DNA of 64,000 nt from Naegleria gruberi (taxonomy: Eukaryota): the NCBI GenBank assembly GCA_000004985.1, contig GG738876.1, one strand, 5' to 3'. Below the pieces are notes generated by a model. The model searched no databases. It was not told the DNA's origin and worked only from the letters and a program-made list of their open reading frames with translations. This document shows, one piece after another, positions 1 to 41,076 of this stretch. Numbering within the stretch: position 1 is the stretch's first letter; the number at the start of each line of letters is the position of its first letter. Position numbers and translations under genes: made by a program.

Positions 1-121
1 ATTTTAATTTCAAGACTTGATATTTTTCTGCTTATATTCTATCTATTTATATAAATATTTATAATAATAAAAAACATTGTACATTTTTCACATTTTAAAA
101 ACAACAATTAAATGTTTTTTA

Positions 122-3100
122 TTAAGATGACAAATCAAAACAACCAATAACATTTGTTATTGAATTAAATATCATTACAATATTAATATTTGAATCTTGA
201 TTTGTAAAATTATTTGAAATTGTAATGTAAAAACATTGAACATGTTCAGATTTTGTTTTAATCATAAATTCACAATTTTTTTCAAAATGATTTTGAATAC
301 AATCAATAAAATTTAAAATCCATTTTTGTTGTGAATTTGTTGTAATTTTAGATAAAAATTCTAATAAATTATTTAATTCTAAATTAATAAATTCAATTGA
401 ATAATCTGCTAATGCAGAAATTGTTTGTTGATTTTTTAAATATTTTTGTCTAAAATAATCCAAAATATCATTTCTAATTATAGTAATATTAGCTTGTTTA
501 AATAAAGTATCTAATAAATTAATAAAAATTAAATTCATTTGAATTGAATTTAAATTTTTAGAAGAAATTGAATGAATTAAATCCAAATGATTTCCATTTT
601 TAGTATCAAAAATAAAAAATTTAAAAAAACTTGGTTGAGTCCAACATTTTGTAATAAATCTCCAACTTAGATTTGAATTATTTAAAATATTTTCAATTTT
701 ATCTAATTGTAATAATAAACTATTATTAATATTTTGTTTTGTAAAATAATAAAAACAAACAAGTTGCCAAATTTTTTCACATTTTACAAATTTTTTTAAA
801 ATGACAGTTGACACTTGACATAGAGAATTAATACTTCTCATTGAAAAAGCTCTATAACTTAGTATATGTATCCAAATATTCATATCTAAATTTTCAATAG
901 TTGAAATTAATTTTTGTTCATTTCCATAATTGGAAATTAAATAAATATTTAAATTTGCTCCTTTTTCTTCTAAATGTGAAATTAAATCTTTACATGAATT
1001 TAAAATTTTACCATAAATAATATGTAATAAATGTAATGGTGTAATTCCATTTCTATTTTCATGATTTACAAAATTAATTAATTTTTCATTTCCTTCAAAA
1101 CAATTTTCAAATTTTTCAATAATTAATTTCAAAATTGGTAAATTACAAATTCTAATAGAATCGAATAAAACATGTTCATTTCTTTCATATAATTTCATTG
1201 AATTAAATGTATATCCTCTAAATACTTGATCTTTCCAATGTTGAATTGAATATTCTTGTTTTTCTATAATTGTACATAAATTTTCATGAAAGGAAATAAA
1301 TTTTTCAATTTCTTTTAAATTTAATTCTTTTTTTTGTTGATATTTTAATTCTTTCATTTCATAATTTAAATTAATTAATTCATCTTTTATATTTTCATCA
1401 TTATTTAAATTATTTCCAAATATATCATTATTTTTAATTATATAAAAATTATTTAAAAAATTAATAAAAAAAACATTAAATGAATTTTGTGTAATTGGTT
1501 CATTTTGTAAAGTTAATTGTGAATAAATACTTCCATCAATTTTAGAAAATAAATGTGAAATTAAATTACATTGTTTTACAATTGTTGATTCTTTCCAATT
1601 TAATTTTTCATAATTAGAAGATGTATAAACTAGGTAATTTAATTTACAATATTCTATTTTTTTAATTAATATTTTATATTCTTTTAATGATTTTATATTT
1701 AAATTATTATTAGAATTATTAAAATTAGAATTTAAATTATTATTAGAATTATTAAAATTATTTAATTTGTTATCTTTTTTATAAATATAGTAATTTAATA
1801 AAATAGGTCTAATTAATTTACAAAATAAAGCAAAAGGATAATATTGTGTAAATTTAAAAAAAGGAAATTGATCAAATATCCAATTCATAATATCATCATG
1901 ATAATTAACTTTAATTGTATTTAAATTATTATTTTTTAATTTAATATATTTTAAAAATCTTTTAACATGTAATTTTGTTATCCTTAAAAGGAAAGGTATA
2001 ATTTTAGAAGGTGATAAACATGATCTATATTGAGCTAACATATCAATTGTACTACGATTAAATGATTTTTCATTGACAAATGAATATTTATATAAATGGA
2101 CTCCACTTCTCCTTATTTGGAATTTAAATAATTCATTTGAATTTAAATTTTTTAATTCTCTTATACAATTATTTAATAATAATAATATCATATTACATTT
2201 TTGTACATATTTTTCAATCATTTGATAATCAATTTGATTTAATAAATTATTTCGACTATTTCCATTATTAGAAGTTACTATATCTAGTCTATTAAATTGA
2301 TTTGGAAATATATCTAAATGTACATCTAAATCACTACAATTACTTTTAAATAAACTACTTCCACTACTATTACCACCACTATTACCATTACCATTACTAT
2401 TATTACCACTACTATTACTACTATTATTACTATTACGATTATTGGATGATGAATTAGATGATGAATTGGAATTACTATAATGGGATGATCCAATTCTATT
2501 AGTATTATTAGTATTATTAGTATTAGTATTATTATTATAGGAAGAGGATGCTGATACTGGTGATGGATCAAATAGTGGATATTCACTACTACTTGTACTC
2601 GTTAATTTCATTGATTGTTTCCATGTATTAGAAGTATTATTATTATTATTATTGGATGATGAATTAGATGATGAATTTCTATTATTATTATTATTATTGG
2701 ATGAAGAAGAATTGGATGAAAATCTATTAGCAAATGATGATGAAGGTTTGAATGATGGAATTGATGATTGATTAGAAGATGAAGATGATGGATTGAATAA
2801 CATTGTAAAATTATCTAATAAATGTACACTGAATGGTGAAGTTTCACTAAATATAAATCCATTCAAGTTTAATGTAAATATTATAATCATTTCTTGTTGT
2901 TGTTGTTGTTGATCATTGGAAGATGTATTGGATTGAAGTGATGAGTGTTTTGATTTCTTAGAAGACTTGTTGTTAGAATTATTAGTGGTGGGTATTTTGA
3001 TAGCTGCATTTGAACCTATTTGTTGTTGAAGTGTACTATTAGATGATGTTATTATAATATTATTATTATTATTATTATTCGAATTGTTATTATTAGAAAG

Positions 3101-3391
3101 TTGATGATAAATATCATATTGATTGATCACTCTTTCCATTAATAATTCACCACTACTTCCTGTACTTGATGAAGATGATGAAGATAATTGATCTGTCATC
3201 ACAACAATATTCCGATTATAATATTCACTACTATTTACTATTGAATAGGTTAATATTGGATCAATTCCATAAAACATATATCTATCTAATATATTTACTA
3301 TATACTTTTGAAATTGTTTAATATAGGAAGATATCATTGTGTGATCATCATCAAGAAATCTGAAAGTTGACATTTTTTTTATATTATTCAT
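122..3391 (-). CDS. Hypothetical Asn/Ser-rich protein (1089 aa), single exon within window
   Basis: Uninterrupted 3270-nt ORF with ATG at 3391 (plus-strand cat at 3389-3391). Long N/S homopolymer tracts and one ankyrin-like motif (NGITPLHLL). No confident family assignment. Confidence 0.5.
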   Translation of the reverse strand: MNNIKKMSTFRFLDDDHTMISSYIKQFQKYIVNILDRYMFYGIDPILTYSIVNSSEYYNRNIVVMTDQLSSSSSSSTGSSGELLMERVINQYDIYHQLSNNNNSNNNNNNNIIITSSNSTLQQQIGSNAAIKIPTTNNSNNKSSKKSKHSSLQSNTSSNDQQQQQQEMIIIFTLNLNGFIFSETSPFSVHLLDNFTMLFNPSSSSSNQSSIPSFKPSSSFANRFSSNSSSSNNNNNNRNSSSNSSSNNNNNNTSNTWKQSMKLTSTSSSEYPLFDPSPVSASSSYNNNTNTNNTNNTNRIGSSHYSNSNSSSNSSSNNRNSNNSSNSSGNNSNGNGNSGGNSSGSSLFKSNCSDLDVHLDIFPNQFNRLDIVTSNNGNSRNNLLNQIDYQMIEKYVQKCNMILLLLNNCIRELKNLNSNELFKFQIRRSGVHLYKYSFVNEKSFNRSTIDMLAQYRSCLSPSKIIPFLLRITKLHVKRFLKYIKLKNNNLNTIKVNYHDDIMNWIFDQFPFFKFTQYYPFALFCKLIRPILLNYYIYKKDNKLNNFNNSNNNLNSNFNNSNNNLNIKSLKEYKILIKKIEYCKLNYLVYTSSNYEKLNWKESTIVKQCNLISHLFSKIDGSIYSQLTLQNEPITQNSFNVFFINFLNNFYIIKNNDIFGNNLNNDENIKDELINLNYEMKELKYQQKKELNLKEIEKFISFHENLCTIIEKQEYSIQHWKDQVFRGYTFNSMKLYERNEHVLFDSIRICNLPILKLIIEKFENCFEGNEKLINFVNHENRNGITPLHLLHIIYGKILNSCKDLISHLEEKGANLNIYLISNYGNEQKLISTIENLDMNIWIHILSYRAFSMRSINSLCQVSTVILKKFVKCEKIWQLVCFYYFTKQNINNSLLLQLDKIENILNNSNLSWRFITKCWTQPSFFKFFIFDTKNGNHLDLIHSISSKNLNSIQMNLIFINLLDTLFKQANITIIRNDILDYFRQKYLKNQQTISALADYSIEFINLELNNLLEFLSKITTNSQQKWILNFIDCIQNHFEKNCEFMIKTKSEHVQCFYITISNNFTNQDSNINIVMIFNSITNVIGCFDLSS
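1701..1762. repeat. Tandem duplication of about 30 nt (aaattattattagaattattaaaatta) inside the CDS, encoding an N/S/L-rich repeat
   Basis: Two adjacent near-identical units read directly in the sequence. Confidence 0.6.
2438..2677. repeat. 30-bp exact direct repeat attattggatgatgaattagatgatgaatt at 2438-2467 and 2648-2677 inside the gene-1 CDS
   Basis: Identical strings 210 bp apart. The surrounding sequence is an att/act trinucleotide microsatellite encoding poly-Asn/Ser. Confidence 0.7.
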
Positions 3392-3557
3392 TTTAATTGG
3401 TAATTGACATGACTTGCATTAAGAAATATGGCCTTGATTATGATCTTTTAATTTACACATATAATATTTACATAAATAGTCTTGTTACATTGAAATTAAC
3501 ACTAAGTTTAACAATCTTTCAATTGAGTTCTTTGAATGTTTTAAAACTCAGTAAATA

Positions 3558-27621: not shown

Positions 27622-30600
27622 TTATTTGTTTAATGAATCGACTTCGACCCATTCATTTTTGTCTTCTTCAATTACTTGATTATTAAGTCTATAATTGTCT
27701 TCCTTTGTTAATTCAATTAAATCCAATTGAACAAGTCTGTTAATTTCATAGTCATCACATACATTTGCATTGTTGCTGGTAGCCATAAATAATTGTTCTT
27801 GTCTTCTTTTTGAAGAAAGTTCTGAAGCAAAGCTTTTAGCAGATTTCAAATCAGATTTCAAGATTTCATAATTAATTGGTTTTCTAATAGCGTTAGAAGT
27901 ATTATTCGAATCATCAGTCATTTGTTCTATGTTATTATTATTGTCTAAAAATTGATCCAAGTATGGTGAAAAGAATACTTGAACATCTATTATTTTGAGT
28001 CTTGTGGTATAGTCGCTCAAAAAGATCCATTTGTAAATTTGGAACTCTTCTGGTAGTTTAACAGTAGCAACATCCAAGAATTTCATAGCATCCATAATAA
28101 CAGTTGAATCTTCATCATCAACAATCTTGTCGCTAAATACTCTCATAATTTCAGTAATAATCATTGGCCACCATTTTCTTAAATTATCTGTCGAAATTCT
28201 AGTAATTAAAACACGATAGAATAACAAAACGCTTGTAATAAGAGCATTATTACTTTGAGGAGAACCAGAAACCTTCAATGATTCAACAATTTTTTCTACA
28301 ATGGCTGGTACAAAATTATTGTAATCATTAATATTACCAACATATAACATGAAAGCAATTCTCTTCAATAATCTAGCTCTAGAAAATACTTCTGTACTAC
28401 TTGATGTTAAAATACTTGAAGTTGATGCAAATCGAGTCAATAAATCTTGAACAAGTGATGTATCAGTAATTTCCATATTTTTGAAAATTTTAAACCAATA
28501 CTTGAATGTACTAGCTCCACAATAGAAGAAACAATTATCTGCAATTGTATCAAATATTTCTTTTTTGAGAGGTCTCATATTTAAAATTGCTGTACTGAAA
28601 GTAGAAATTAATTTAACAGCTTGTTTAACTCTTCTTAAATTTGTTGTTTCTCTATTCTTAATAATTAAAAATAGTGGATAAATAATGGCAATAATTAATG
28701 GCTGTCCTAAATCTTTTTCTCCATACAAATAAGTTATTATATCATTTAAAGTGGATGATAAAAGTCTTAAAAAGTTAAAAGATGGATCACTGTGATCGTG
28801 TAAGGATTTTCTAAAGATGGAATCTTTTACATTATCTAAATTCTGTAAATTATTAGTTGACGAGATTTTCTTGATTTCCTTGATGATTTCATTACGTTTT
28901 TCATTGATATCCTTATTTGTTAGAGTAAAGCAACATTCTATCAACTTTTGAGTATTATCTTTCAATGTAGATTTCAATTTTTTATCATTTTGTAGATATG
29001 ATCCCCAACTAGATAAAAATTGATGTACAACTCTTAATAATAATGATAATGTTAATAGATCAGAGTTCTTATCAGATGTTAGTGAAGAGATCAGAGTTAC
29101 AAGCTTGTTTGCTATTTGAGAATAAATTTCACTCTTAATACACTTTTTCAAGTAAAAGAAGAGAAGGTGAAGAGAGTAATTGTCCTTCATCTTTTTCATA
29201 GCAATCTCTTCTTGAGGGTTGTCATGGGATAATATCAAATCAATAAGACTTGTAACTACAATATCAGGTGTTGTGTTATCGCAATTATTTAAAATATCAA
29301 TAAGATGACTATCCAAAGAATGTTCATCAGAATAAATTGAAATGTTTGAATCGGTATGAGTCTTTGACCACAACACAAGTATAGAAGCAATTAATTGTAA
29401 TGGGAATCTAACAATTAATGGATCAATAAATTGAAGAATACTTTTTTCAATAGATAATTTAGAATGAAGAGAGCCTGATTGAGAAATAGAATGAATTTTT
29501 GTAGTTTGCTTATTGGTTGTTTCTTTTGGTATACCACTAGAAATTCTTAAAGCTTGCCATGTTATGGCCATGGACTCTATAATGTTTGGAAGTTCAGAAA
29601 GCATGTATTTTCTTGCTTCATAGTCAGGAGAAATAAAACCAGAGTTATGATCATCTTGTGTAAAGACATCCTTCATAAAATCTGTGAATGCCTTGAATGG
29701 CATTACAATACCTGATGGTGTCTCCTCATTTGGTTTTGGTTCTTCAATTTCTCTTAAAACACAATAACTTGAAACTTCCCTCAACCCTCCAATAAGAGTT
29801 CGAATAGCTTGTCCTCTAAAGCTATCTATACCCAAGGATGAATATTCACGAATAATGTCACAAATGAGTGGAACCAACATGTTTACAAATTTTGGTAATT
29901 GATTATGGAAATGAGGAAGGAATGAAGAAATACTATCTATCCAATAACTTAATAATGAATAAGAATGGAAAGAATCAGAAAGTTCAACTCTACTTGAATG
30001 TCTAACTCCTTCAATAAGTGTTATGAGAAAGTTTGGCGAGTTGAGTAAACTACTTATTGGTAGAGACTCCTTTGAGGTATCATTGTTTGATTTTGTAGGA
30101 CTAGCCGTGATTGGAAACAGATTTTGGAGAGGTTTCATTGGAGTATTGGAGTCTAATTGTTCAATAATTGTCTTGAGTATTTCAAGTAATTCAACTTGGA
30201 ATACAGTATCATTATCATCAATAGCAATCTTTAAATGATATAAAATACATTCACACAAAGATTTGCTCAATTCTGTTGCTTTTGAGGATTGTCTTCCATA
30301 GATTAGAATATCTTTCAATAGAGAAGCTGCACTTGTTCTAATACATTCCTCAAGTGAAATATCACTTGAAGAGGTTGTCGTTCCATTATTCTTATTAATA
30401 TAAATTCCACATTCCATCATCTTGATACAAATAACTGAAATGATAGAAAAGTAATCCCTATCTTGTAGATTCACTAATTTGGATGGTAAATTTTCTTCAT
30501 TTAAATAATATGGTCTATTTACAATAAATTTGTCATAAATGTTTAAAACTTCCTCACTGGCAATCATTCTTCCAGTTTTTTCAACAAATAATTGAGGAGA

Positions 30601-33369
30601 AACATTTAAAATATTTCTCAATAATGATAATACATATTTACATCTACTTTCATCGAATAGAGTCTTTCTCTCTTGTAAAGTGTCATTTGTTTCTTGGAAA
30701 CGATCCAAAGGACTAGATTCTGACCAACAATCTGAAGTAGTTGAATCTGACGACTTTACTCTATTATGTCTAGAGAAAAGACTTCTCATGGATTGTTTAT
30801 CCAACAATGTTAAAAGAAGTGGATCCAAAATTCTGTTAATATTTGAAAATGATGACAGTAACCATGAGCGGCCAACTAACCTCATAGAGGCTTGATCACT
30901 TGAAATTAAATCAAGCATTAAATAAAATCCATCTTCAAATATTCTTTGTCTAATATTTAAATCGTCTGTCAATCTCCAACAAAGAGCAAATCTTCTATTT
31001 CCCTCGAGTTTTGATTCAATAGTATTACTGAGTAAAGAATCTGAAACAACAGCATTACATATTGTTCTATTTAAATTATAAATATCCACTAGTAATTTTG
31101 TAACTTCATGATGAACTTGTGAATAGGAAGGTGTTAACATATCCCACAATCTGGAAGTTATTAGTTTTAAATAGTTGACATCCTTAATGATTGCACGTTG
31201 TTGATGAGAGTCTACCCCTGAATCATTAGATAATAATTTTAAGAATGACTCAATAGCAGCCAGTGAAATGTTGTAGTCCTCTAAAAAACAACAAGAATAA
31301 ATAGATTTTATACCTAGAGGTATTTCTACTGATTTTGGCGGTATATTTTCTACTAACTTAATAAATGACCTTCTCTTTTTGAATGACGTGTAAAGTAAAT
31401 CGCATGCAATTACATAAATTGTACATAAAATAGATGTATCTTCTAAATTAAATTTGTTTGAAATTATATAAGTATTCACAATATTGGTAAATAATTGTTC
31501 ACATTCAACATGAATTTGATTAATATAATTCAACATTAAACTTTCACTTGGAAGATTTTCTTCCATCTTTTCAATTAAAAATAAGAGAATGGAAATATTT
31601 CTCTCAATAGAAGTATAATCCTTATAAAAAACTTTGTCAACTTTCAAATTGAACAAGTTTAAAAATACTGAACAAATTTTAAACAAGTATTCACTTGGAA
31701 TTTGGTCCTTTTTCAAAGTGAAAATAACTTCCAAAGTGCCCTTTACAAGAGTATAATTTTCCAATTCCTGAGCTTCATTCTCGTTTGCCTCTTCAAATAG
31801 TTGATTGATTCTTTCCCATAACAAGGGAAATGAACAAGTAGATGAAATAAAATTAATAGTTTCTTTTCTAAATGATTCCTTTTCACTATTTAAAACATGA
31901 ATTAATTCCAATAATATTAAAGAAATTAACTTTTCCTTCATGGAGATATTTTCTCCAATCTTTTCTAATATCAAATAAATAACATCAAATATCTTCTTAT
32001 TGGAAGGTTGAGATGAAGATTTTTGTAAAATTAAATTAAAAGAACGAGATACAATTTGAATAGAATGCTTAGAAAAGAAATCCAAATCAATATCACTTGA
32101 TCCAAAAATCCAAGAAAATATTCTTCTATTGATAGAGACATCTCCCTTTTCAATTAATAATAATGCAATACTACAAATACTTGTCAATTGTTCCATTGTA
32201 AAAATAGTTGACGATTCCTCTACAACTTTATCCAACGTAATAAATGATGAAAGAATTTCTAAAGATGCCCGTTGTGCCATGACATTATTATCATTTAAAC
32301 TTGTTATAATTGCTTGTGATACAATTTCAATAGATTCTCCAAATATTGGTGAATGAGCATTAAGAGTTTGTTCATTTTCTATTTTTGCCAATTATCGAAC
32401 TGTTGAGAATATAAAAAATCTACTCACTTTTTAAACAATAAATTATATAATTAAGTCCTGAAACTCTAAAAAATGGTGTCGAAAGTATGCCTTTCCAAAG
32501 AGATTTGAAAAATAGTTCCTGATCACTAATATTTCTCAATGTGTTCATGATTTTCAGTGTCTATAATGTTAAGCACTTATAGTATTCGAAATGAAAACCT
32601 ACTCGTTTGTAAATATCACTTCCTTCCTCTTCCAATGCCGATAATAGTACAAGAATTAAACCAGACAAGCATGGTAAAAGAGATTTTCCTAAAGGCAAAT
32701 AATAAGTCTCGATTAAATCTAAAATTACAGGCTTTGTGTTTTGTCAATTATTTAAAAAATTAAATTAAATTCCATACCTTGATTTGAGAAGAAGCACTTG
32801 GAAAGAGTGTAAAAATTCCAGAACTATACAAGTGAATATCTCTTGCCAAACGTTTTCCCTGAATAGAATATAAATTTCCATATGATACTTGCTCCAAAAT
32901 TCAATACACTTACAGTAATTAATTTTAAAATTTCCTCATATGTTTCCAATGTTTTCAAATGAACTCCTCCAGGTAGAGCAGGATTTAAACATTGAGCCAA
33001 TCTTTTACAAACTGTAATTTTTTCAGGAAGAATGTGAAGTTGAGCGTTCTTGGTCAAGACTTTTTTCATCTTTTGAAGACACTTGATCAAATCAGCCCAT
33101 TCCCTAGTATTATCAAATGATTTTAATACGGAAATGATATCCTCTCGATAGGATTTAAATTTACTATTTTTCATAATTTGTTCGTCTTGAATATCGGGAT
33201 GTTCCTCCTCCGAATTGATGAGTGGTGAGAGTGTAATTTGTTGTGTGCTTTCAATTCTAGGCATGTTTGGAGATGATGTTGTTGATGATGATAATGTCGA
33301 TTTTGATTCAGTAGAATTGTCGGCTACCAAATCCCCAAAGCCAAGATTTTGAGAGAGGCTTTTAAACAT
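27622..33369 (-). CDS. DOP1: Dopey/DOP1-family protein. Exons 33369-32914, 32858-32778, 32731-32603, 32518-32428 and 32378-27622
   Basis: N-terminal exon REWADLIKCLQKMKKVLTKNAQLHILPEKITVCKRLAQCLNPALPGGVHLKTLETYE matches the Dopey N domain. Small exons encode GKRLARDIHLYSSGIF, PVILDLIETYYLPLGK..LEEEGSDIYKR and ELFFKSLWKGILS. The large exon contains LNRRIFSWIFG. Introns are 55, 46, 84 and 49 nt, all phase-consistent. Confidence 0.85.
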
Positions 33370-33721
33370 TTTTTAAATAGTTAATTAGTTGAATGGACAT
33401 GTTGGTCACAATGTGTTACGGCCCTGCTTGATTCAATGTATAGCAGTTTTTACTCTACGTGTATTCCTTCGACGTGTCAATTGAGTAAATAACATGTACT
33501 GAGTAATTTGAATGCCTCTGACGGTTTGTTGCTTGAAATTTTGCTGCAGTGTTTCCAAATGATGACAAAAATATTCATTGTAAAAATACTGGTCACCCAA
33601 ATTTTTTAAAATTGTTTCCGAAAAAAAATAACACAAGTGAGTATTGCTACTATCATGCTTTTTTTTTAACCTCTTTGTTTTTCAACAACAATAACTTATT
33701 GTTCCCTTCAATATAAGAAGA
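33370..33721. promoter_or_regulatory. Shared 5' intergenic region (bidirectional promoter, inferred) between divergent DOP1 and RPS18
   Basis: 352-bp interval flanked by two divergent start codons. No motif-level evidence. Confidence 0.3.
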
Positions 33722-34192
33722 ATGAGCTTGGTTGTCGTTCAAGAAGAAAACTTCAAGGAATTGTTGCGTTTGTTCAACACTAACATTGAAGGTAGAAGAT
33801 CCGCACTCTATGCCTTGACCTCTGTTAAGGGTATTGGTAGACGTTTCGCTGGTATTGTCTTGAAGAAGGCTGAAATCGAACTTACCAAGAGATCTGGTGA
33901 ATTGAGCGAAGAACAAATCAACAAGATTCAAGATATCATTCTTGCTCCAGAAAAGTACAAGATTCCATCTTGGTTCTTGAACAGAAGAAGAGACTGGAAG
34001 AGTGGTGCCACTGAACACTTGGTTGCCAACGCTGTCGATATGTACTTGAGAGAAGATTTGGAAAGACTTAAGAAGATCAAGTCTGAAAGAGGTTTGAGAC
34101 ACATGTGGGGTCTTAGAGTCAGAGGTCAACACACCAAGACTACTGGTAGAAGAGGTAAGACTGTTGGTGTCAGCCATAAGAAACGTGGATAG
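33722..34192 (+). CDS. RPS18: 40S ribosomal protein S18 (uS13), single exon
   Basis: [48 protein letters not shown] and near full-length identity pattern to eukaryotic uS13. Codon usage is GC3-richer than neighbours, consistent with high expression. The overlapping minus-strand ORF 33653-34210 is antisense noise. Confidence 0.9.
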
Positions 34193-34303
34193 GTCCCCTA
34201 ATTTAAACACAAATAAAAAAACATTATTTCATAAATTTTAACATTTTTTTAAAATTATTTATGAAATTTATGTTGTTTTAATTCCAAAAATGTCAATAAA
34301 CTA
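34178..34303 (+). repeat. Cassette copy A: last 12 nt of RPS18 CDS, stop codon and the 3'UTR containing aatgtcaataaacta
   Basis: aagaaacgtggataggtcccctaatttaaacacaaataaaaaaaca...aatgtcaataaacta. This is the prototype for copies B-D. Confidence 0.8.
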
Positions 34304-34343
34304 TTGGTATTTGGTTTCTTAAAATTGGCACTGTACGAGCTGT

Positions 34344-34410
34344 AAGAAACGTGGAAAGGTCCCCTAATTTAAACACAAATAAAAAAACACAAATAAAAAA
34401 ACATTTTTAA
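34344..34410 (+). repeat. Cassette copy B (truncated): aagaaacgtggaaaggtcccctaatttaaacacaaataaaaaaacacaaataaaaaaaca
   Basis: Includes 12 nt matching the RPS18 C-terminal codons, with TAG mutated to AAG. Lacks the aataaacta end. Confidence 0.8.
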
Positions 34411-34420
34411 ATTTACTAGT

Positions 34421-34601
34421 TCTACGGTACTCAATTTGCCAATGTAATAATTTACTGAAAAGTGGATAGGTCCCCTAATTAAAACACTAAAAAGCAATTT
34501 CATAAATTTGAACATTTTTAAATTCCATTAATGTCAATAAACTATAGTGGTGTAAGGCATTAGTTTCTGAACCAATCCATTGGCGAATTGAGTACCGTAG
34601 A
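34421..34601. repeat. 24-bp inverted repeat (tctacggtactcaatttgccaatg at 34421-34444 and cattggcgaattgagtaccgtaga at 34578-34601, 23 of 24 complementary) flanking cassette copy C
   Basis: The reverse complement of the right arm equals the left arm except for one position. The 133-bp spacer contains copy C. The geometry is MITE-like or hairpin-like. Confidence 0.7.
34459..34546 (+). repeat. Cassette copy C: aaaagtggataggtcccctaattaaaacactaaaaagcaatttcataaatttgaaca...ttaatgtcaataaactatag
   Basis: Direct reading. Retains gtggatag and gtcccctaatt and the aataaacta end. Confidence 0.8.
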
Positions 34602-34764
34602 AAGAGTTTCAAACGAGTCATTTCTAGGTTTTCACAACATGATGGCTTTTCAAAATGGACCATCCATCTTTAATTTCCAACTGTTAATCCAAAGCGATCT
34701 GATTTACTGTTTTGGTTGGCCAACAATAAAAGCCTTCTACATGATTCAAAGAGCATTGAGAATG

Positions 34765-34788
34765 AATTGGAATTTTATAACGTTGCAA
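34765..34788 (+). repeat. 24-bp direct repeat aattggaattttataacgttgcaa (copy 1)
   Basis: Identical to 37632-37655. Together they bracket the orphan ORF and cassette copy D. Confidence 0.8.
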
Positions 34789-35359
34789 CGAGAATAGTTG
34801 GTTACTCAATACACCCCCACGGTCAAAATAGCCCTAGTGTTTGAACAGTATTACCGTAGTTCCTCTGGTTTATGAGACCGTCTCAACAACCTCTTACAAA
34901 ATGTCATAGAGACAGAATATCGGAACTACAACTTTTCGCTATTTTGAAATTTAATGGGTAATGGGGTGTATTGGAAAACAAACAAATATTGGATACTACC
35001 AAATTTAAACAATGGACAAACGAACAAGTTTGCTCCTTGTTTTGCATATCAGCTTCTTTTGTACTGTCGACAGCTTTGAAAACTTGCCCTTGTTGTCGGG
35101 TGCAAATGATCTTCTTTTACAATATTTTACATTGTTGTTTACCTTGTCGTGCACGACAACCTAAAATAAATTTTAAAAAAAAATGCTCAAAAACTATGAA
35201 TTATCAGTCTAATCAACAACTATGAATTATCATTCTACTCTTCAACTTTCGGACCATTTCAGAATAATGTATTTTTAAAGACTTTTTCAGCATTTCGGAA
35301 AGACTATAAATACTGAAGGGAGGGTTTCGAATTGTCTTTAAAAATTATTCAAATATTCA

Positions 35360-37519
35360 ATGCCTAAACAACCTTGTTCATCACAAAGGAATGGTAAAAC
35401 TAGCCTTGAAACGGATCAAATTCTCTTGGAATATTATTTAATTCATGGAAATTATTTGAATATCAATCAAAGTAATGCCGACTATCATTTTACTAACTCT
35501 CAATCGAAACAGAGATGGAGAAGAATGAAGGAATGTTTTACAAATAGAGTCATTCAATCCAATCCTTCTACCAATACAACACTGCACAAAATTTCTCTCC
35601 TTTATCCTAATCTGAAAAAGACCATTCTCTTTTCAATTACTTTAAATGATGAGGAGAAAATTATTGAATCAACTCGAAAAGAAATTGCTATCAATCCACC
35701 ACCCATTCAACAAACTCCATATAATAGAAAGGGTGTCTCTACCTTTGAAATTCATCCCGACTCTGAAACTATCAAACAATATTTCCAAAACTTGTTACAT
35801 AATCAAACTCATGTCAAGAAGGTTTCACTCAAAGAAATCAATGCAATTTGGGCTGAAATTGGTTTTGCTCATTACAAGAGTAAAAACACTACAAATAGTG
35901 AACCTGTCATTGCTGCTCAACTTTGTTCATTGAATGGAAAATCGTATGAGAGTGTCAAACAATCGTTCAAAGTTCATAGCAAACTCTATCACAAGAAGGA
36001 AAAGTGTTCTCAGTGTATGGGATTTGCTTGCTTTAATTATTCCATTCTTTGTAAAGGATGTACCTATTTGAAATTAATTGATCATGATCCAGTTATTTGG
36101 ATTCAAAAAACAGCTAATCCCAAAAAAATAGAATGGACCTTTACACTTTCCAACTGTAATAATTTGAATTATACTAGTCTTTTTAATTTGAAATACCCAG
36201 TTGATGATATTCAAAGTAACGACCTGTCAATTCAAAGTGATAAACAAGATGAAATGTCAATTCAAAGTGATGAAAACGGCTGTGACAATTATGAGGAAGA
36301 TGAAATGATGGATGAAACTAATGTAACTCAATCAAAAGAAAGTAATCAATCCATTCAAGAACGAATTCAAACATTTTACACTTCCTGTCATGATTATTGT
36401 AATATTTTTCAAGAAGAATTTAATGGTTTTCAAGAGTGGAAACCAAAATTTCAAAATTATGAACCACCCCATACTGCTCATCAATTAATGAATCAAGCTA
36501 TGGTCAGAAATCGAAACTTGTTGAAACTATTACCTCTTGAGGAGAATTACAATTTTATTTGGATTCAAAATGGTTCTGAAAAGAAACAATATTCTCAATG
36601 GATTGAATTGATTGAGAAGAATTTCAAATTGAAAACTCTTGATAATTTTAATGCAACAGATCCAATTATTTATGTCATGATATTTATTTTCAAAAAGGAT
36701 TATCAAATGGAACCAATGATTCAAATTGGTGAAAGTGAAAATTATCAAAAGAGAATGAATGGTTACAAATATGACAGTTCAGATCGATTGATCAATAGAG
36801 CCTTTAGTAAGGCCACATTAATTTTTAGTTGTCCTCTAGAGATTCAAGCTGATACACCCATACGTAAATTGAAAGAAACCTTTTATATTTGTCAATTGTT
36901 GGAACAAGCATTTCATCCTCTCAATAGCAATTTTAGTGATCCTGATAGTGTCAATCGCTTACATTCCATTTTTGATGGTAAAATTAATTTCTCAACATTG
37001 GATAGATTGAATTATTCAAGTTTTAACACTTCTCTCAAACTTTTACATCTTGATTCTGATGCTAATAATACCATTCATATTGAGAAGGGAAATTATGTGA
37101 TTGAAAGTAATAATCAAGTAGTATTGAGAAAACCATTTATATTCATGTTGGAAAGAGAGAAATTCAAACACTACTTTCCTCATGCTCCTCAAAAATTGTT
37201 GAATGCCTTTAACATTGCCTCAATCAAGTATCAAGGATTGAATAATTTATTGTATGACAATGATGAGTTGTACAAGGAGGAATACTTGCCAAAATGTTTT
37301 GGAATAATGAATAGAATTGTTCATCCCAAAGGTTTTGGCAAGTATTTGCGCTTTGATTTTCCAAGTGCATGTCTTGAATATGAAAATGGTTTTTATCCCA
37401 TTTCCTTCCTCTCTATTCGATGCAATTATGAACAAGTCATTAGAAAGGTCATTATGAAAAATACAATCATGAAGGATTGTATCTGCATTAACGATGTGGA
37501 AGATGATAATTTCATCTAA
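35360..37519 (+). CDS. Orphan 719-aa protein. N-terminal Myb/SANT-like stretch (ILLEYYLIHGNY...SKQRWRRMKECF), a Cys cluster (CSQCMGFACFNYSILCKGCTYLKL) and an internal 30-nt tandem repeat (SIQSD x2)
   Basis: ATG-initiated uninterrupted 2160-nt ORF. No RT, integrase or DDE motifs seen. The 3' end is immediately followed by cassette copy D. Confidence 0.55.
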   Translation: MPKQPCSSQRNGKTSLETDQILLEYYLIHGNYLNINQSNADYHFTNSQSKQRWRRMKECFTNRVIQSNPSTNTTLHKISLLYPNLKKTILFSITLNDEEKIIESTRKEIAINPPPIQQTPYNRKGVSTFEIHPDSETIKQYFQNLLHNQTHVKKVSLKEINAIWAEIGFAHYKSKNTTNSEPVIAAQLCSLNGKSYESVKQSFKVHSKLYHKKEKCSQCMGFACFNYSILCKGCTYLKLIDHDPVIWIQKTANPKKIEWTFTLSNCNNLNYTSLFNLKYPVDDIQSNDLSIQSDKQDEMSIQSDENGCDNYEEDEMMDETNVTQSKESNQSIQERIQTFYTSCHDYCNIFQEEFNGFQEWKPKFQNYEPPHTAHQLMNQAMVRNRNLLKLLPLEENYNFIWIQNGSEKKQYSQWIELIEKNFKLKTLDNFNATDPIIYVMIFIFKKDYQMEPMIQIGESENYQKRMNGYKYDSSDRLINRAFSKATLIFSCPLEIQADTPIRKLKETFYICQLLEQAFHPLNSNFSDPDSVNRLHSIFDGKINFSTLDRLNYSSFNTSLKLLHLDSDANNTIHIEKGNYVIESNNQVVLRKPFIFMLEREKFKHYFPHAPQKLLNAFNIASIKYQGLNNLLYDNDELYKEEYLPKCFGIMNRIVHPKGFGKYLRFDFPSACLEYENGFYPISFLSIRCNYEQVIRKVIMKNTIMKDCICINDVEDDNFI

Positions 37520-37525
37520 TATATG

Positions 37526-37628
37526 TGAGTCCCCTAATTAAAACACGAATAAAAAAGCAATTTCATAAATTTTACCATTTTTTATTTTTTTAATTTTTAT
37601 TTAATTCCATAAATGTCAATAAACTACA
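37526..37628 (+). repeat. Cassette copy D, directly after the orphan ORF stop: tgagtcccctaattaaaacacgaataaaaaagcaatttcataaatttta...taaatgtcaataaactacag
   Basis: Same gtcccctaatt...aatgtcaataaacta architecture as the RPS18 3'UTR. Followed by the second copy of the 24-bp direct repeat. Confidence 0.8.
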
Positions 37629-37631
37629 GAT

Positions 37632-37655
37632 AATTGGAATTTTATAACGTTGCAA
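37632..37655 (+). repeat. 24-bp direct repeat aattggaattttataacgttgcaa (copy 2)
   Basis: Exact match to 34765-34788. Confidence 0.8.
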
Positions 37656-38642
37656 TCAATATTGAAAAATCTCCTTCTCAACTTTCATTTTTTGTAAAAT
37701 AACACCTTTCAGAATGTATCATGGTGTGCAAGTCTTTATTTTCATCTAATATTTATGATATTATTTTTAATTCCATTTTTAACAGAGAGGATAAACCCAA
37801 TAATCCATACGATTTAAATAAAAAAACCATATTTAAAAATCAAATAATCATTTCGAATTGCTGCCGGCACAAATGGTGACAAAAATTGCTGGAAGCCACT
37901 GTATTCCCATCGAGATTGCTAACAAAATTTGTAGGAGCCATCTACTCAAGTCAATTTTCAATACCCTGTTTCAACAAACAGTCATTATTCTTTTCAGATT
38001 GGAGCAAGTCATTGATTTTTAAATATCTTGTTTTGCTATGAATTGTTGACTGTTATTGTGATTGCTGACTGTGAGGATTAATATGAACAATACGAATTGC
38101 TAAATTCTAATAATCCAATTAAGGGAAATGGGATAGATTGAATGGTAAGTTCCATTAACATGTCTCAATTCACCACGTATTGTCTCAATCATTTATTGTC
38201 TTATTACATTAACTAAAAAACTACTCCTCATCAGAGCTTGGCTTACAGAGAAATACTTTTTATCAATTAATTTTAATCCAGTAAGTGTTGAACTAATCTC
38301 TCCAGATATTAAATTCCATTTAACTATTTTATTGTGTTTCCATTTTTTGAAATTGTTTCTAGAGATGATTCCATTGGGAGAGAAAGTAAGGAGTGTTTGG
38401 ATTTGTGATTGTTAATGCCTTTTTCATTAAGGTTAAAAGTGTTGGTTCATTTTCTTAATTTTATTTAAAAAAATGAAACAATCCGAATGCATGTCTTTAT
38501 CAAGAAACGATGAACACTTTTTCCAAAGGAATTTGAAGCAATTCGTAAATTTTTGAGTGAAAATCAGTCAACATATTTATCTGGTTTTTATGAGCTGGAA
38601 ATTAGTATCGAAAAATCTCAGTATTTCTTTAAATGAAAAACA

Positions 38643-38860
38643 ATGAAAAAAAGTGATTATCGTAAGATAGCCAATTTGAAGTTAAGAGCTGGGTAAGAGC
38701 TGCCGATGAATTGAGAGAATGTGTCAATAATTTTCCAAGCTCCAATAACATTAATAATAGAGAGGATTTCTTCAAGTATCGATTAAATTGGTTAATGTCA
38801 ATTGGTAATGACAATTTATATTTTGATTGTAGTGTTGAACTTGGCGAAAATATTAAATAA
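38643..38860 (+). CDS. Tentative small spliced gene (about 55 aa: MKKSDYRKIANLKLRAG|SNNINNREDFFKYRLNWLMSIGNDNLYFDCSVELGENIK). Exons 38643-38692 and 38740-38860
   Basis: ATG, then GG|GTAAGA donor and CCAAG| acceptor (47-nt intron) keep the frame to a TAA at 38858-38860. It lies in an otherwise empty 1.5-kb interval. Purely structural inference with no homology. Confidence 0.2.
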
Positions 38861-39163
38861 AATTAATACTGATATTTATATACGCAATGGTTATTCAAGG
38901 ATATATAATGTTTGCAAATTCCAATGATATGGATGATGCATTTAATTGTGAAGAATTTCACAAAACAATAATATTAACGATACTGACATCAATATTTTTA
39001 AGGCAACAGTCTTTTCATTTTTTTAATTCGATCGAATTTATCGATCTTTGAAAAGATTTATTTCAATTCTATTGATTGCATTGACGTTAACAGAGATAAT
39101 CTGGCAAAGTTGATTAATTTTAATTATTTTATTTTCAATTTTAACAATTTTTCAAAACTTAAT

Positions 39164-41076
39164 TTACCATCCGTAAAGTCCCTTACCAACACGAACCTTT
39201 TCTAAATAATCTTCAAAATCCTTCTTCAAATAAATAGGCATAACACCACGCATAGCAGCATCTCTATCAACAGATCTAAGTTGATCAACACACTTGAAGA
39301 AAGCAGGAATGACGTTCAAAATATTTCTACTACCATAGAGTCTGACAGAACAGTATTTAAGACCCAAATAAGCACACAACTTTCTTAAAATTGGATTGGC
39401 AGTTGGTTGTTCCTTAGTACTAGGGTGAATTCTGACTTTACAAGCACCAAACTTGGCTTCGAGCATATGAGAACGTGGAATGCAAGCAGAAGGATCAATA
39501 CTTCTAATATTCTTATAAGCAGCCTTTCTTGCCTTTGATTGAGCAACTGCTGGACTGGCAGCTGTACCAAAACCAACACCACACAATCCACTGTAACTTC
39601 CTACCAAGTACAAACAATTGTATGATTCAACTCTACCACCAGTGGTCATTTTACAATTTCTTGAAAGCTTGAGAACCTTTTCTTCGAATGAAACATCTGT
39701 AATAGCATCCTTTTGACCGTGATAAATTTCTGGATCTTCAACATCATCAGCAAGTGGGTGAGTAATTGCTGGTTCACCTTCATATTCATAAAGTGATTCA
39801 TCCCAATCAGCATCAAGATCAACATCTCCAAAGTAACCCTTTTCAACACCAACACTAGCATTATAAATTGGATTAACACTAACATTAGTCTTGGATGACT
39901 TTCCCTCTATGATTGATTCTAAATTTTGGATTTGTTGTCCAAGTTGTGTTTCATCAAATTGATATAAATAGAAAGGAGCTGATGTTTCATCTCTTTCTTG
40001 TCTTAACAGCTTAGTGTTCAATGATTTAATCATATCGGATTGATCAACCTTTGAAACTTTGAATCTCTTTCCTTGCAATTTACCTAAATTTTCAACATCT
40101 TGAGAAACACGTTCAAATGACTTTGGAACTTGAATTCTTTCAGGATCAGCTTCATTCTTTTCTTCAATTAATTCATGGAATCTAGAGTAATCTTTTCTAA
40201 CTCTTAAAGCTTCTTGTAATTCATTAATTGGTATGTTTTCATCGACATCCTCAATATCTATAGTATCAATTTCATTTGACCCAACTTCTTCTTCATCTTC
40301 AATTTCTTCCATTTGTTCATTTTCATTATCCTCGTCTTGATCTCTTCTTGAGATGTTATCTTCATCAACCATTTCATCTAAGTCATCCAAATCGGCTTGA
40401 GTCTTTAATTTACTCAAATCATATAAACTTTTAACTTTGAATCTGTTATATTCAGTTTCGGCAGGTTGAGAAAAAGTACCAGGGAACATTCCAAAGTTAG
40501 TATATTTAGCCCAAATTCTTTCCTTTTGTACAGCTCTTGGTAATTGAAGGTTAACGTTGGCTTGTAAGAGACTCAAACTAATAAAGGCTTCCTTGATTTT
40601 TCTTACAAGTTTTGTTTCCTTCTTTTCGGTAGCGAGCCAATAAACAACTTTATGTCTCTTTTCCTTACGCAAATTCTTGAGGTAGAAGACAAGAGTTTCA
40701 AACATTTCTTCAGTGAATTTAGTACCTTGTTGTTTTGCTTCTATAATATTGATAAACTAGTTATAAAATTATTATTGTTGTTGTTTAACATTATTTTGAG
40801 AGCGATAATATTACATACGTCTTTATCATTATCTGTTGTTGGGAAATTTAATTCTTCGGCAGGAATTTCTCTATTTCTTTCTTTTTCTTCCATTTGTTTA
40901 AGTTCGCTATCACTAATTCTTTCAAAAGAATTTTTAATGATTTTACTTGATGAAAAGCATCGGCTTTGAATATATGAAGGAGAGTTGTGAATTGAAGAAA
41001 AACAAAGAGGTGATTGCTTGGTGGCCAACTTCTTAGTTGAAGAAGGGAGCTGGCGCAAAAGTTTAATGTTTCTCAT
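39164..41076 (-). CDS. MRPS5: Mitochondrial ribosomal protein S5 (uS5m) with a long acidic N-terminal extension. Exons 41076-40819 and 40756-39164, with a 62-nt intron
   Basis: C-terminal uS5 signature: GGRVESYNCLYLVGSYSGLCGVGFGTAASPAVAQSKARKAAYKN..GACKVRIHPS..LGLKYCSVRLYGSRNILNVIPAFFKCVDQL. Exon 1 looks like a mitochondrial presequence (MRNIKLLRQLPSSTKKLATKQSP..). Donor GAC|GTATGT and acceptor AACTAG|TTT. Confidence 0.75.

Follow-up and report, generated by a model that had tools for sequence, protein, structure and literature searches.

How does the 3' end of a ribosomal protein gene come to stand behind a second, unrelated gene? The question is raised by a stretch of 64,000 nucleotides (nt) of the Naegleria gruberi genome (contig GG738876.1, assembly GCA_000004985.1; ~31% G+C), here called the window, in which a block from the end of RPS18 recurs downstream of that gene and once more behind an open reading frame (ORF) of 719 amino acids (aa), the orphan gene. 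An earlier note, made from the sequence alone, had described this cassette as a ~125 bp block, amplified four times. The explanation which we favour, with a rough probability of 0.68, is that a ~120–165-nt block from the RPS18 3' end was copied locally, as DNA, and that its most distant copy would serve as the 3' end of the orphan gene. The genes and units concerned are listed here, with unit boundaries taken from gapped local alignments (UTR, untranslated region):

33722–34192, plus strand: coding sequence of RPS18 (uS13), without introns, 156 aa, TAG stop at 34190–34192
34172–34337, plus strand: unit A, comprising the final 21 nt of RPS18 coding sequence, the stop, the 3'UTR and downstream DNA; 166 nt as a tandem unit
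34338–34456, plus strand: unit B, 77 nt of clear homology, probably ~119 nt including a degenerate 3' half
34457–34571 (end approximate), plus strand: unit C, ~115 nt; last 13 nt of the RPS18 coding sequence, TAG kept, cassette with internal deletions
35360–37519, plus strand: orphan gene NAEGRDRAFT_68992, 719 aa, TAA stop at 37517–37519
37529–37655, plus strand: unit D, ~127 nt; cassette from GTCCCC, 9 nt past the orphan stop, ending with a 24-mer at 37632–37655

The core of the cassette, GTCCCCTAATT, is found at exactly four places in the window (34193, 34359, 34470 and 37529). About 0.74 matches would be expected by chance, and a count of four was never reached in shuffles of the window. 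Exact matches to a second element, AATGTCAATAAACTA, lie at 34289, 34530 and 37612. When the whole window was compared with itself by BLAST, A aligned with D at 77% identity over 132 nt (E=2e-19), with B at 83% over 77 nt (E=6e-13) and with C at 81% over 86 nt (E=8e-11). Within 33600–39300 the corresponding values were 78% over 122 nt for A and D (E=2e-22), 98% over 47 nt for A and B (E=2e-17) and 86% over 69 nt for A and C (E=9e-15); C and D aligned in two stretches, with 89% over 54 nt and 93% over 27 nt. Pairwise identities across the units range from 78 to 98%, with BLAST E-values from 1e-22 to 1e-9; C and D are 78–90% identical to A (A and C: 90% over aligned columns). Exact matches, shuffles and self-BLAST agree, and the four copies are present where the earlier note had placed them. 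The first, however, is the 3' end of RPS18 itself, so only three are additional. The units also differ in length, with 166 nt for A, 77 clear or ~119 probable nt for B, ~115 nt for C and ~127 nt for D. A fourth tandem unit following C (P=0.10) and a fifth, degenerate copy at 37725–37790 (BLAST E=0.33) were rejected as candidates.

Short tandem arrays can be misassembled, and one may ask whether the tandem copies are an artefact of this kind, although nothing specific speaks for it. Between the copies there are differences of 2–22% and several indels, and the junctions of each are unique, whereas misassembly usually gives identical copies; an artefact is scarcely credible. The whole A-B-C array comprises only ~400 nt, less than the length of one Sanger read, the type of read used for the N. 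gruberi genome.

A, B and C are head-to-tail units behind RPS18, starting at 34172, 34338 and 34457, respectively. Nucleotides of the RPS18 coding sequence are present in both B and C, whose source is therefore RPS18 itself. B has kept the last codons, with the stop changed from TAG to AAG, as had been seen before; its positions 34343–34389 are 98% identical to 34177–34223 in A. C also carries a coding remnant, GAAAAGTGGATAG, which had escaped the earlier note, and retains GTGGATAG with the stop intact. Unit A comprises 145 nt of DNA downstream of the stop. For D, the earlier note had given 37526 as the start of the copy forming the 3' end of the 719-aa ORF. A copy does exist there, but its homology begins only with the GTCCCC at 37529. 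Extending D upstream into the RPS18 coding sequence was not significant (P=0.018 under an ORF-derived null, 0.11 under a window-wide null). The end coordinate 37655 of the earlier note marks where a 24-mer ends, of which a second, exact copy is found at 34765–34788.

Alternatively, the cassette could belong to a family of dispersed repeats, or could be a poly(A) or terminator module of generic type that follows many unrelated genes; we would then see a local cluster of it here. The block GTCCCCTAATTnAAACAC, located between the stop and the proximal AAUAAA, is unchanged in four of four copies while the remaining sequence diverges by 10–22%, a pattern which could reflect a selected module. Yet the core is restricted to a single locus in 64 kb with ~35 genes. 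Low-complexity DNA at 1–3000 aside, the cassette family is the sole real dispersed repeat in the whole-window self-BLAST, which yielded no members beyond A, B, C and D. Matches to the 18-mer GTCCCCTAATTWAAACAC, 17 from metagenomes and one viral, were all in unrelated sequences. Neither the RPS18 coding nucleotides in B and C nor the unrelated 3'UTR of a close environmental relative (RPS18 97% identical at the aa level) fit such a family, and we consider it unlikely. The idea, raised in the earlier note, of a terminator module reused by several genes thus finds no support in the window, the metagenome or the viral collections. Rather doubtful, too, is the proposal that the block is a selected portable 3'-end module, acting as a fail-safe terminator for RPS18 and as a working 3' end for the new orphan gene.

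If the copies arose locally, was DNA or RNA the template? Duplication at the DNA level is indicated because the units lie head-to-tail beside their source, no A-run follows any copy and the homology continues past the likely cleavage site. In the competing scenario, 5'-truncated reverse transcripts of RPS18 mRNA, or template switches on it, were inserted and one of them became joined to the orphan gene. The common 3' part and the 5' ends, none more than 21 nt from the stop, do resemble 5' truncation, and RPS18 mRNA is presumably abundant. A shared 3' end with variable 5' truncation is likewise what LINE (long interspersed nuclear element) retrocopies or 3' transductions show. Unlike such products, however, no copy has a poly(A) tail: the distal AATAAA is followed by CTATTGG, CTATAGTGG and CTACAGATAATTGG. 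Target-site duplications or direct repeats flanking B, C or D are absent as well, and the units are tandem at the source gene and all within 3.5 kb instead of being dispersed. Moreover, homology extends through the distal AATAAA and ~25–35 nt beyond, far past the predicted cleavage site; measured from the cleavage position predicted from the proximal AATAAA, the units reach ~100 nt further, this position being a prediction only. An RNA-mediated origin, and with it the captured or transduced 3'UTR considered in the earlier note, is for these reasons quite improbable.

The arrangement shares much with known local tandem or segmental duplications of 3' ends, as produced by unequal exchange, slippage or template switching. 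The copies have the same orientation, are contiguous or nearby and significantly similar; the head-to-tail units adjoin the source gene, probably include flanking DNA that is not transcribed, and lack poly(A) tails; identities are graded, indels fall into A/T runs, and the array contains an inverted segment. Inverted segments are frequent after replication-based rearrangements. What differs from the usual picture is D, which is set apart by ~3 kb with a complete orphan gene and sits exactly at the stop of that gene. A "recent segmental duplication", as suggested in the earlier note, therefore describes the DNA-level, head-to-tail character correctly, but only B appears recent, judged from its 98% identity to A over 47 nt, and gene conversion could give the same value.

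The relationships among the units are informative about the origin of D. C and D have several derived states in common relative to A and B (TAATTA, GCAATTTCAT, TTCCAT and ACTAnAG), and their mutual identity is 89–93%, versus 78–81% between A and D. Because of these shared derived states, the alignments place D as sister to C, the third unit of the array, and do not derive it directly from the 3' end of RPS18 itself.

From these relationships we infer the following as the simplest and most likely course of events. The source block would have consisted of the last RPS18 codons, the stop, the 3'UTR with the proximal AAUAAA and a further ~80–120 nt downstream, in which a second AAUAAA lies. Its duplication in tandem, within the N. 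gruberi lineage, would have given the head-to-tail array A-B-C, with the fourth unit D now 3 kb further away. A C/D-like unit may have come to lie beyond the ~3 kb with the orphan gene either by insertion of this DNA into the array or by copying of the unit behind it. B may have been created later from A, or may have been homogenised with A by gene conversion. B and C could be non-functional relics or could provide spare poly(A) sites for RPS18 read-through.

Two further structures of the array bear on the mechanism. The first is an inverted repeat which encloses unit C, the second a 24-mer in common with D:

34415–34444, no strand assigned: left arm of the inverted repeat, 30 nt
34578–34607, no strand assigned: right arm of the inverted repeat, 30 nt
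34765–34788, plus strand: 24-mer AATTGGAATTTTATAACGTTGCAA, an additional copy, identical to the final 24 nt of D

The arms of the inverted repeat are 90% complementary over 30 nt, with 25 nt at 96% (E=1.5e-5), and folding of 34405–34615 gave z=-7.2. Its left arm is contained in the degenerate 3' half of B, the unit which also harbours a 14-nt internal tandem repeat (34371–34403) duplicating the proximal AATAAA. So strong an inverted repeat, spanning 193 nt, a typical size for a miniature inverted-repeat transposable element (MITE), might suggest that C, perhaps the whole family, was carried by a foldback or MITE-like element bounded by these arms. Terminal inverted repeats are, however, present around C only, without a visible target-site duplication at their ends; the arms have no further copies in the window, between them there is just the unit derived from RPS18, and a neighbouring 187-nt hairpin (34797–34983) is not homologous. 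A mobile element of this type is accordingly very improbable. The 24-mer has two matches in the window, with 0 expected by chance. Its first 16 nt match the flank of A at 11 of 16 positions, and therefore the copy linked to D is the native one. On the favoured reading of a local duplication, both the isolated 24-mer and the inverted repeat enclosing C would resemble by-products of replication- or repair-based template switching.

The 187-nt hairpin just mentioned is a nested imperfect palindrome which begins 9 nt past the 24-mer copy. It consists of three nested inverted-repeat pairs, with a predicted RNA fold of -53.5 kcal/mol (z=-3.84), and has no match in Rfam. A homology between the hairpin regions 34415–34607 and 34797–34983 was sought and rejected. 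Scans of the region with Rfam at a relaxed threshold and for tRNAs gave no matches either.

Which part of the cassette could act in 3' end formation? Full units contain two AATAAA hexamers each, with U-rich sequence after the proximal one:

34212–34217 (proximal) and 34295–34300 (distal), plus strand: AATAAA of unit A, 19 and 102 nt after the RPS18 stop
34536–34541, plus strand: distal AATAAA of unit C; the proximal one is lost, with ATTAAA at 34478
37548–37553 (proximal) and 37618–37623 (distal), plus strand: AATAAA of unit D, 28 and 98 nt after the orphan stop

Up to five AATAAA and one ATTAAA are thus present within 350 nt behind RPS18. An AATAAA lies 13–22 nt after the stop in four of four available RPS18 loci of the Naegleria clade, and the position of the proximal hexamer is conserved at the RPS18 loci of N. 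fowleri and of two environmental Naegleria. By direct-RNA mapping, the poly(A) signal of N. gruberi is AAUAAA, 15–20 nt upstream from the site of cleavage, and the median 3'UTR measures 39 nt (PMC11529991). Based on these published data and on the position of the proximal hexamer, the 3'UTR of RPS18 is probably ~40–45 nt long and would comprise only the first part of the cassette, a point missed in the earlier note; for the orphan gene a 3'UTR of ~50 nt is predicted from the proximal hexamer of D. Judged by hexamer placement, the cassette as a whole is a short 3'UTR followed by ~80–120 nt in which a second signal is located. Both 3' regions accord in their placement of AAUAAA (predicted 3'UTRs of ~40–55 nt) and in the U-rich sequence after the proximal hexamer with the mapped poly(A) regions of N. 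gruberi (PMC11529991); they differ from these in the lack of an upstream UGUA in A and D and in the presence of two hexamers per unit. From its position, D is best read as supplying the cleavage and polyadenylation signals of the orphan gene.

The comparison with related genomes shows where the additional units reside. In N. fowleri, the genes are ordered Dopey (minus strand), RPS18 (plus) and mitochondrial RPS5 (mRPS5; minus), and the order in Willaertia magna is alike. The corresponding gene at the far edge of the spacer is, in the window:

39164–40705, minus strand: last exon of mRPS5, assigned by the Pfam domains Ribosomal_S5 and S5_C and by synteny

The mRPS5 proteins of the window and of N. 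fowleri both end with GKGLYGW. The convergent stops of RPS18 and mRPS5 are 118 nt apart in N. fowleri (two assemblies) and 581 nt apart in W. magna, compared with a spacer of 4,971 nt here. Therefore B, C, the orphan gene and D, together with ~1.5 kb without an ORF (37656–39163), are located in what the synteny marks as a lineage-specific spacer expansion of ~5 kb, a setting not recognised in the earlier note. None of the RPS18 3'UTRs from N. fowleri, Willaertia or the two environmental Naegleria contigs could be aligned with the cassette, not even that of the contig whose RPS18 is 97% identical at the aa and 90% at the nt level of the coding sequence. Hence the cassette as such is specific to the N. 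gruberi lineage. A 46-aa ORF downstream of the RPS18 gene of this environmental relative has no significant similarity to the orphan protein. Close to the other edge of the spacer, 33 nt adjoining the mRPS5 stop (39129–39161) weakly resemble the middle of A (34224–34257; ~28 of 33 positions). This is the top 120-nt window outside the cassettes (P=0.024 in dinucleotide shuffles), barely ahead of other A/T-rich windows, and may be a relic of an ancestral shared spacer or chance in A/T-rich DNA.

What is the gene that ends at D? The 719-aa ORF is 100% identical to the predicted N. gruberi protein NAEGRDRAFT_68992 (XP_002675666.1, UniProt D2VJC8). The reading frame is real and resembles host genes in its use of codons, because 719 codons remain open in DNA of 31% G+C and codon usage correlates with that of the other genes of the window in frame (r=0.88, against 0.55–0.59 out of frame). 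Among 5.8 billion clustered proteins (word-based search) and 1.84 billion representatives (phmmer) the only match was the protein itself, with no relative in other Naegleria and no paralogue in N. gruberi. Searches of PHROGs and PDB sequences gave nothing meaningful, a scan of viral contigs revealed no relatives, and no literature was found under the identifiers of the gene. The only lead to a family is T5orf172 (GIY-YIG-like; PF10544), whose domain start matches aa 438–479 (36671–36796) below threshold (E=0.044; 14.7 bits versus a gathering cut-off of 20). A single-sequence AlphaFold model was unusable (predicted local distance difference test, pLDDT, 30). Marks of a transposon were not detected, as the gene has no terminal repeats, other copies or recognisable enzyme domain.

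Some sequence details of the orphan gene should be mentioned. A 26-nt tandem repeat, TCAACAACTATGAATTATCAGTCTAA, occupies 35187–35237 (two copies, 92%), ~125–170 nt upstream of the ATG, and a TATAAATA-like sequence is located at ~35308; both may be promoter elements of the gene. Within the coding sequence, 36216–36326 contains short internal direct repeats of ~30 nt, which encode SIQSD twice within an acidic stretch of low complexity. At 37517–37537, the TAA stop is followed in the same frame by a TGA two codons on and then by a TAA within CCCCTAA. This TGA has the same position and frame relative to the cassette as the TAG of RPS18, which may be coincidence (a chance of 1 in 3) or the trace of an earlier stop.

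Several observations weigh against a simple local duplication as the whole account. It does not explain in detail why the 24-mer recurs without a mismatch at 34765, why C is enclosed by an inverted repeat of 30 nt or why all 5' boundaries lie no more than 21 nt from the RPS18 stop. As the 3'UTRs of related species are not alignable, the order of events cannot be rooted. Finally, that the orphan gene uses D, and which AATAAA RPS18 would choose, is deduced from the positions of the hexamers, and the repair mechanism from the traces it may have left.

The identity of RPS18 itself is clear, with a match to Pfam Ribosomal_S13 (E=2.7e-47) and 88% identity to the N. fowleri protein. No entry for the exact protein was present in the searched protein collection, where an environmental sequence with 97% identity was the top match; the N. 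gruberi gene may be missing from public annotation or be modelled differently there. An antisense ORF of 185 aa (33653–34210) overlaps RPS18. Upstream of the gene, a ~20-nt motif, AAAAATATTCATTGTAAAA(A)TAC (33567–33589), is conserved in N. gruberi and in two environmental Naegleria contigs (L001, 135–156; L005, 1–19), and these contigs have unalignable 3'UTRs. The motif is a candidate promoter or 5' element of RPS18. Introns do occur in the window, as in the neighbouring Dopey gene, which is split into 27622–32391 and 32824–33369. The beginning of the window (1–3400) is extremely A/T-rich (16–19% G+C) and includes a 1089-aa ORF on the minus strand (122–3391) with a third-position G+C content (GC3) of 0.08 and extensive self-similarity, of low identity, on both strands; it therefore represents a repetitive gene or region of low complexity.

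In summary, this locus is a real, statistically solid and fairly ordinary local duplication, a further example of a type of event already known, in which one copy has probably been co-opted, to judge from its position, to form the 3' end of the orphan gene. For annotation it contains a warning: RPS18 is without an exact entry in the searched protein collection, and relic copies of stop plus UTR could mislead the mapping of 3' ends. It is a general phenomenon that new or chimeric genes recruit pre-existing regulatory or 3'-end sequences. The present case resembles it in that a lineage-specific gene ends in the 3' region of an old neighbour with a canonical AAUAAA, and differs in that only the 3'UTR/terminator is common to both, without any coding sequence, and that its use by the orphan gene is presumed. 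If the doubtful idea of a selected module were true, the locus would present a concrete, datable case in which a terminator was captured while a new gene became established in a protist, and the invariant GTCCCCTAATTnAAACAC would be a functional 3'UTR element. About one third of the N. gruberi genes have no known homologues. If D is really used, a lineage-specific gene would have gained a ready-made polyadenylation region through the duplication of its neighbour's 3' end, and the locus would offer a small, clean case for studies on how orphan genes become established.

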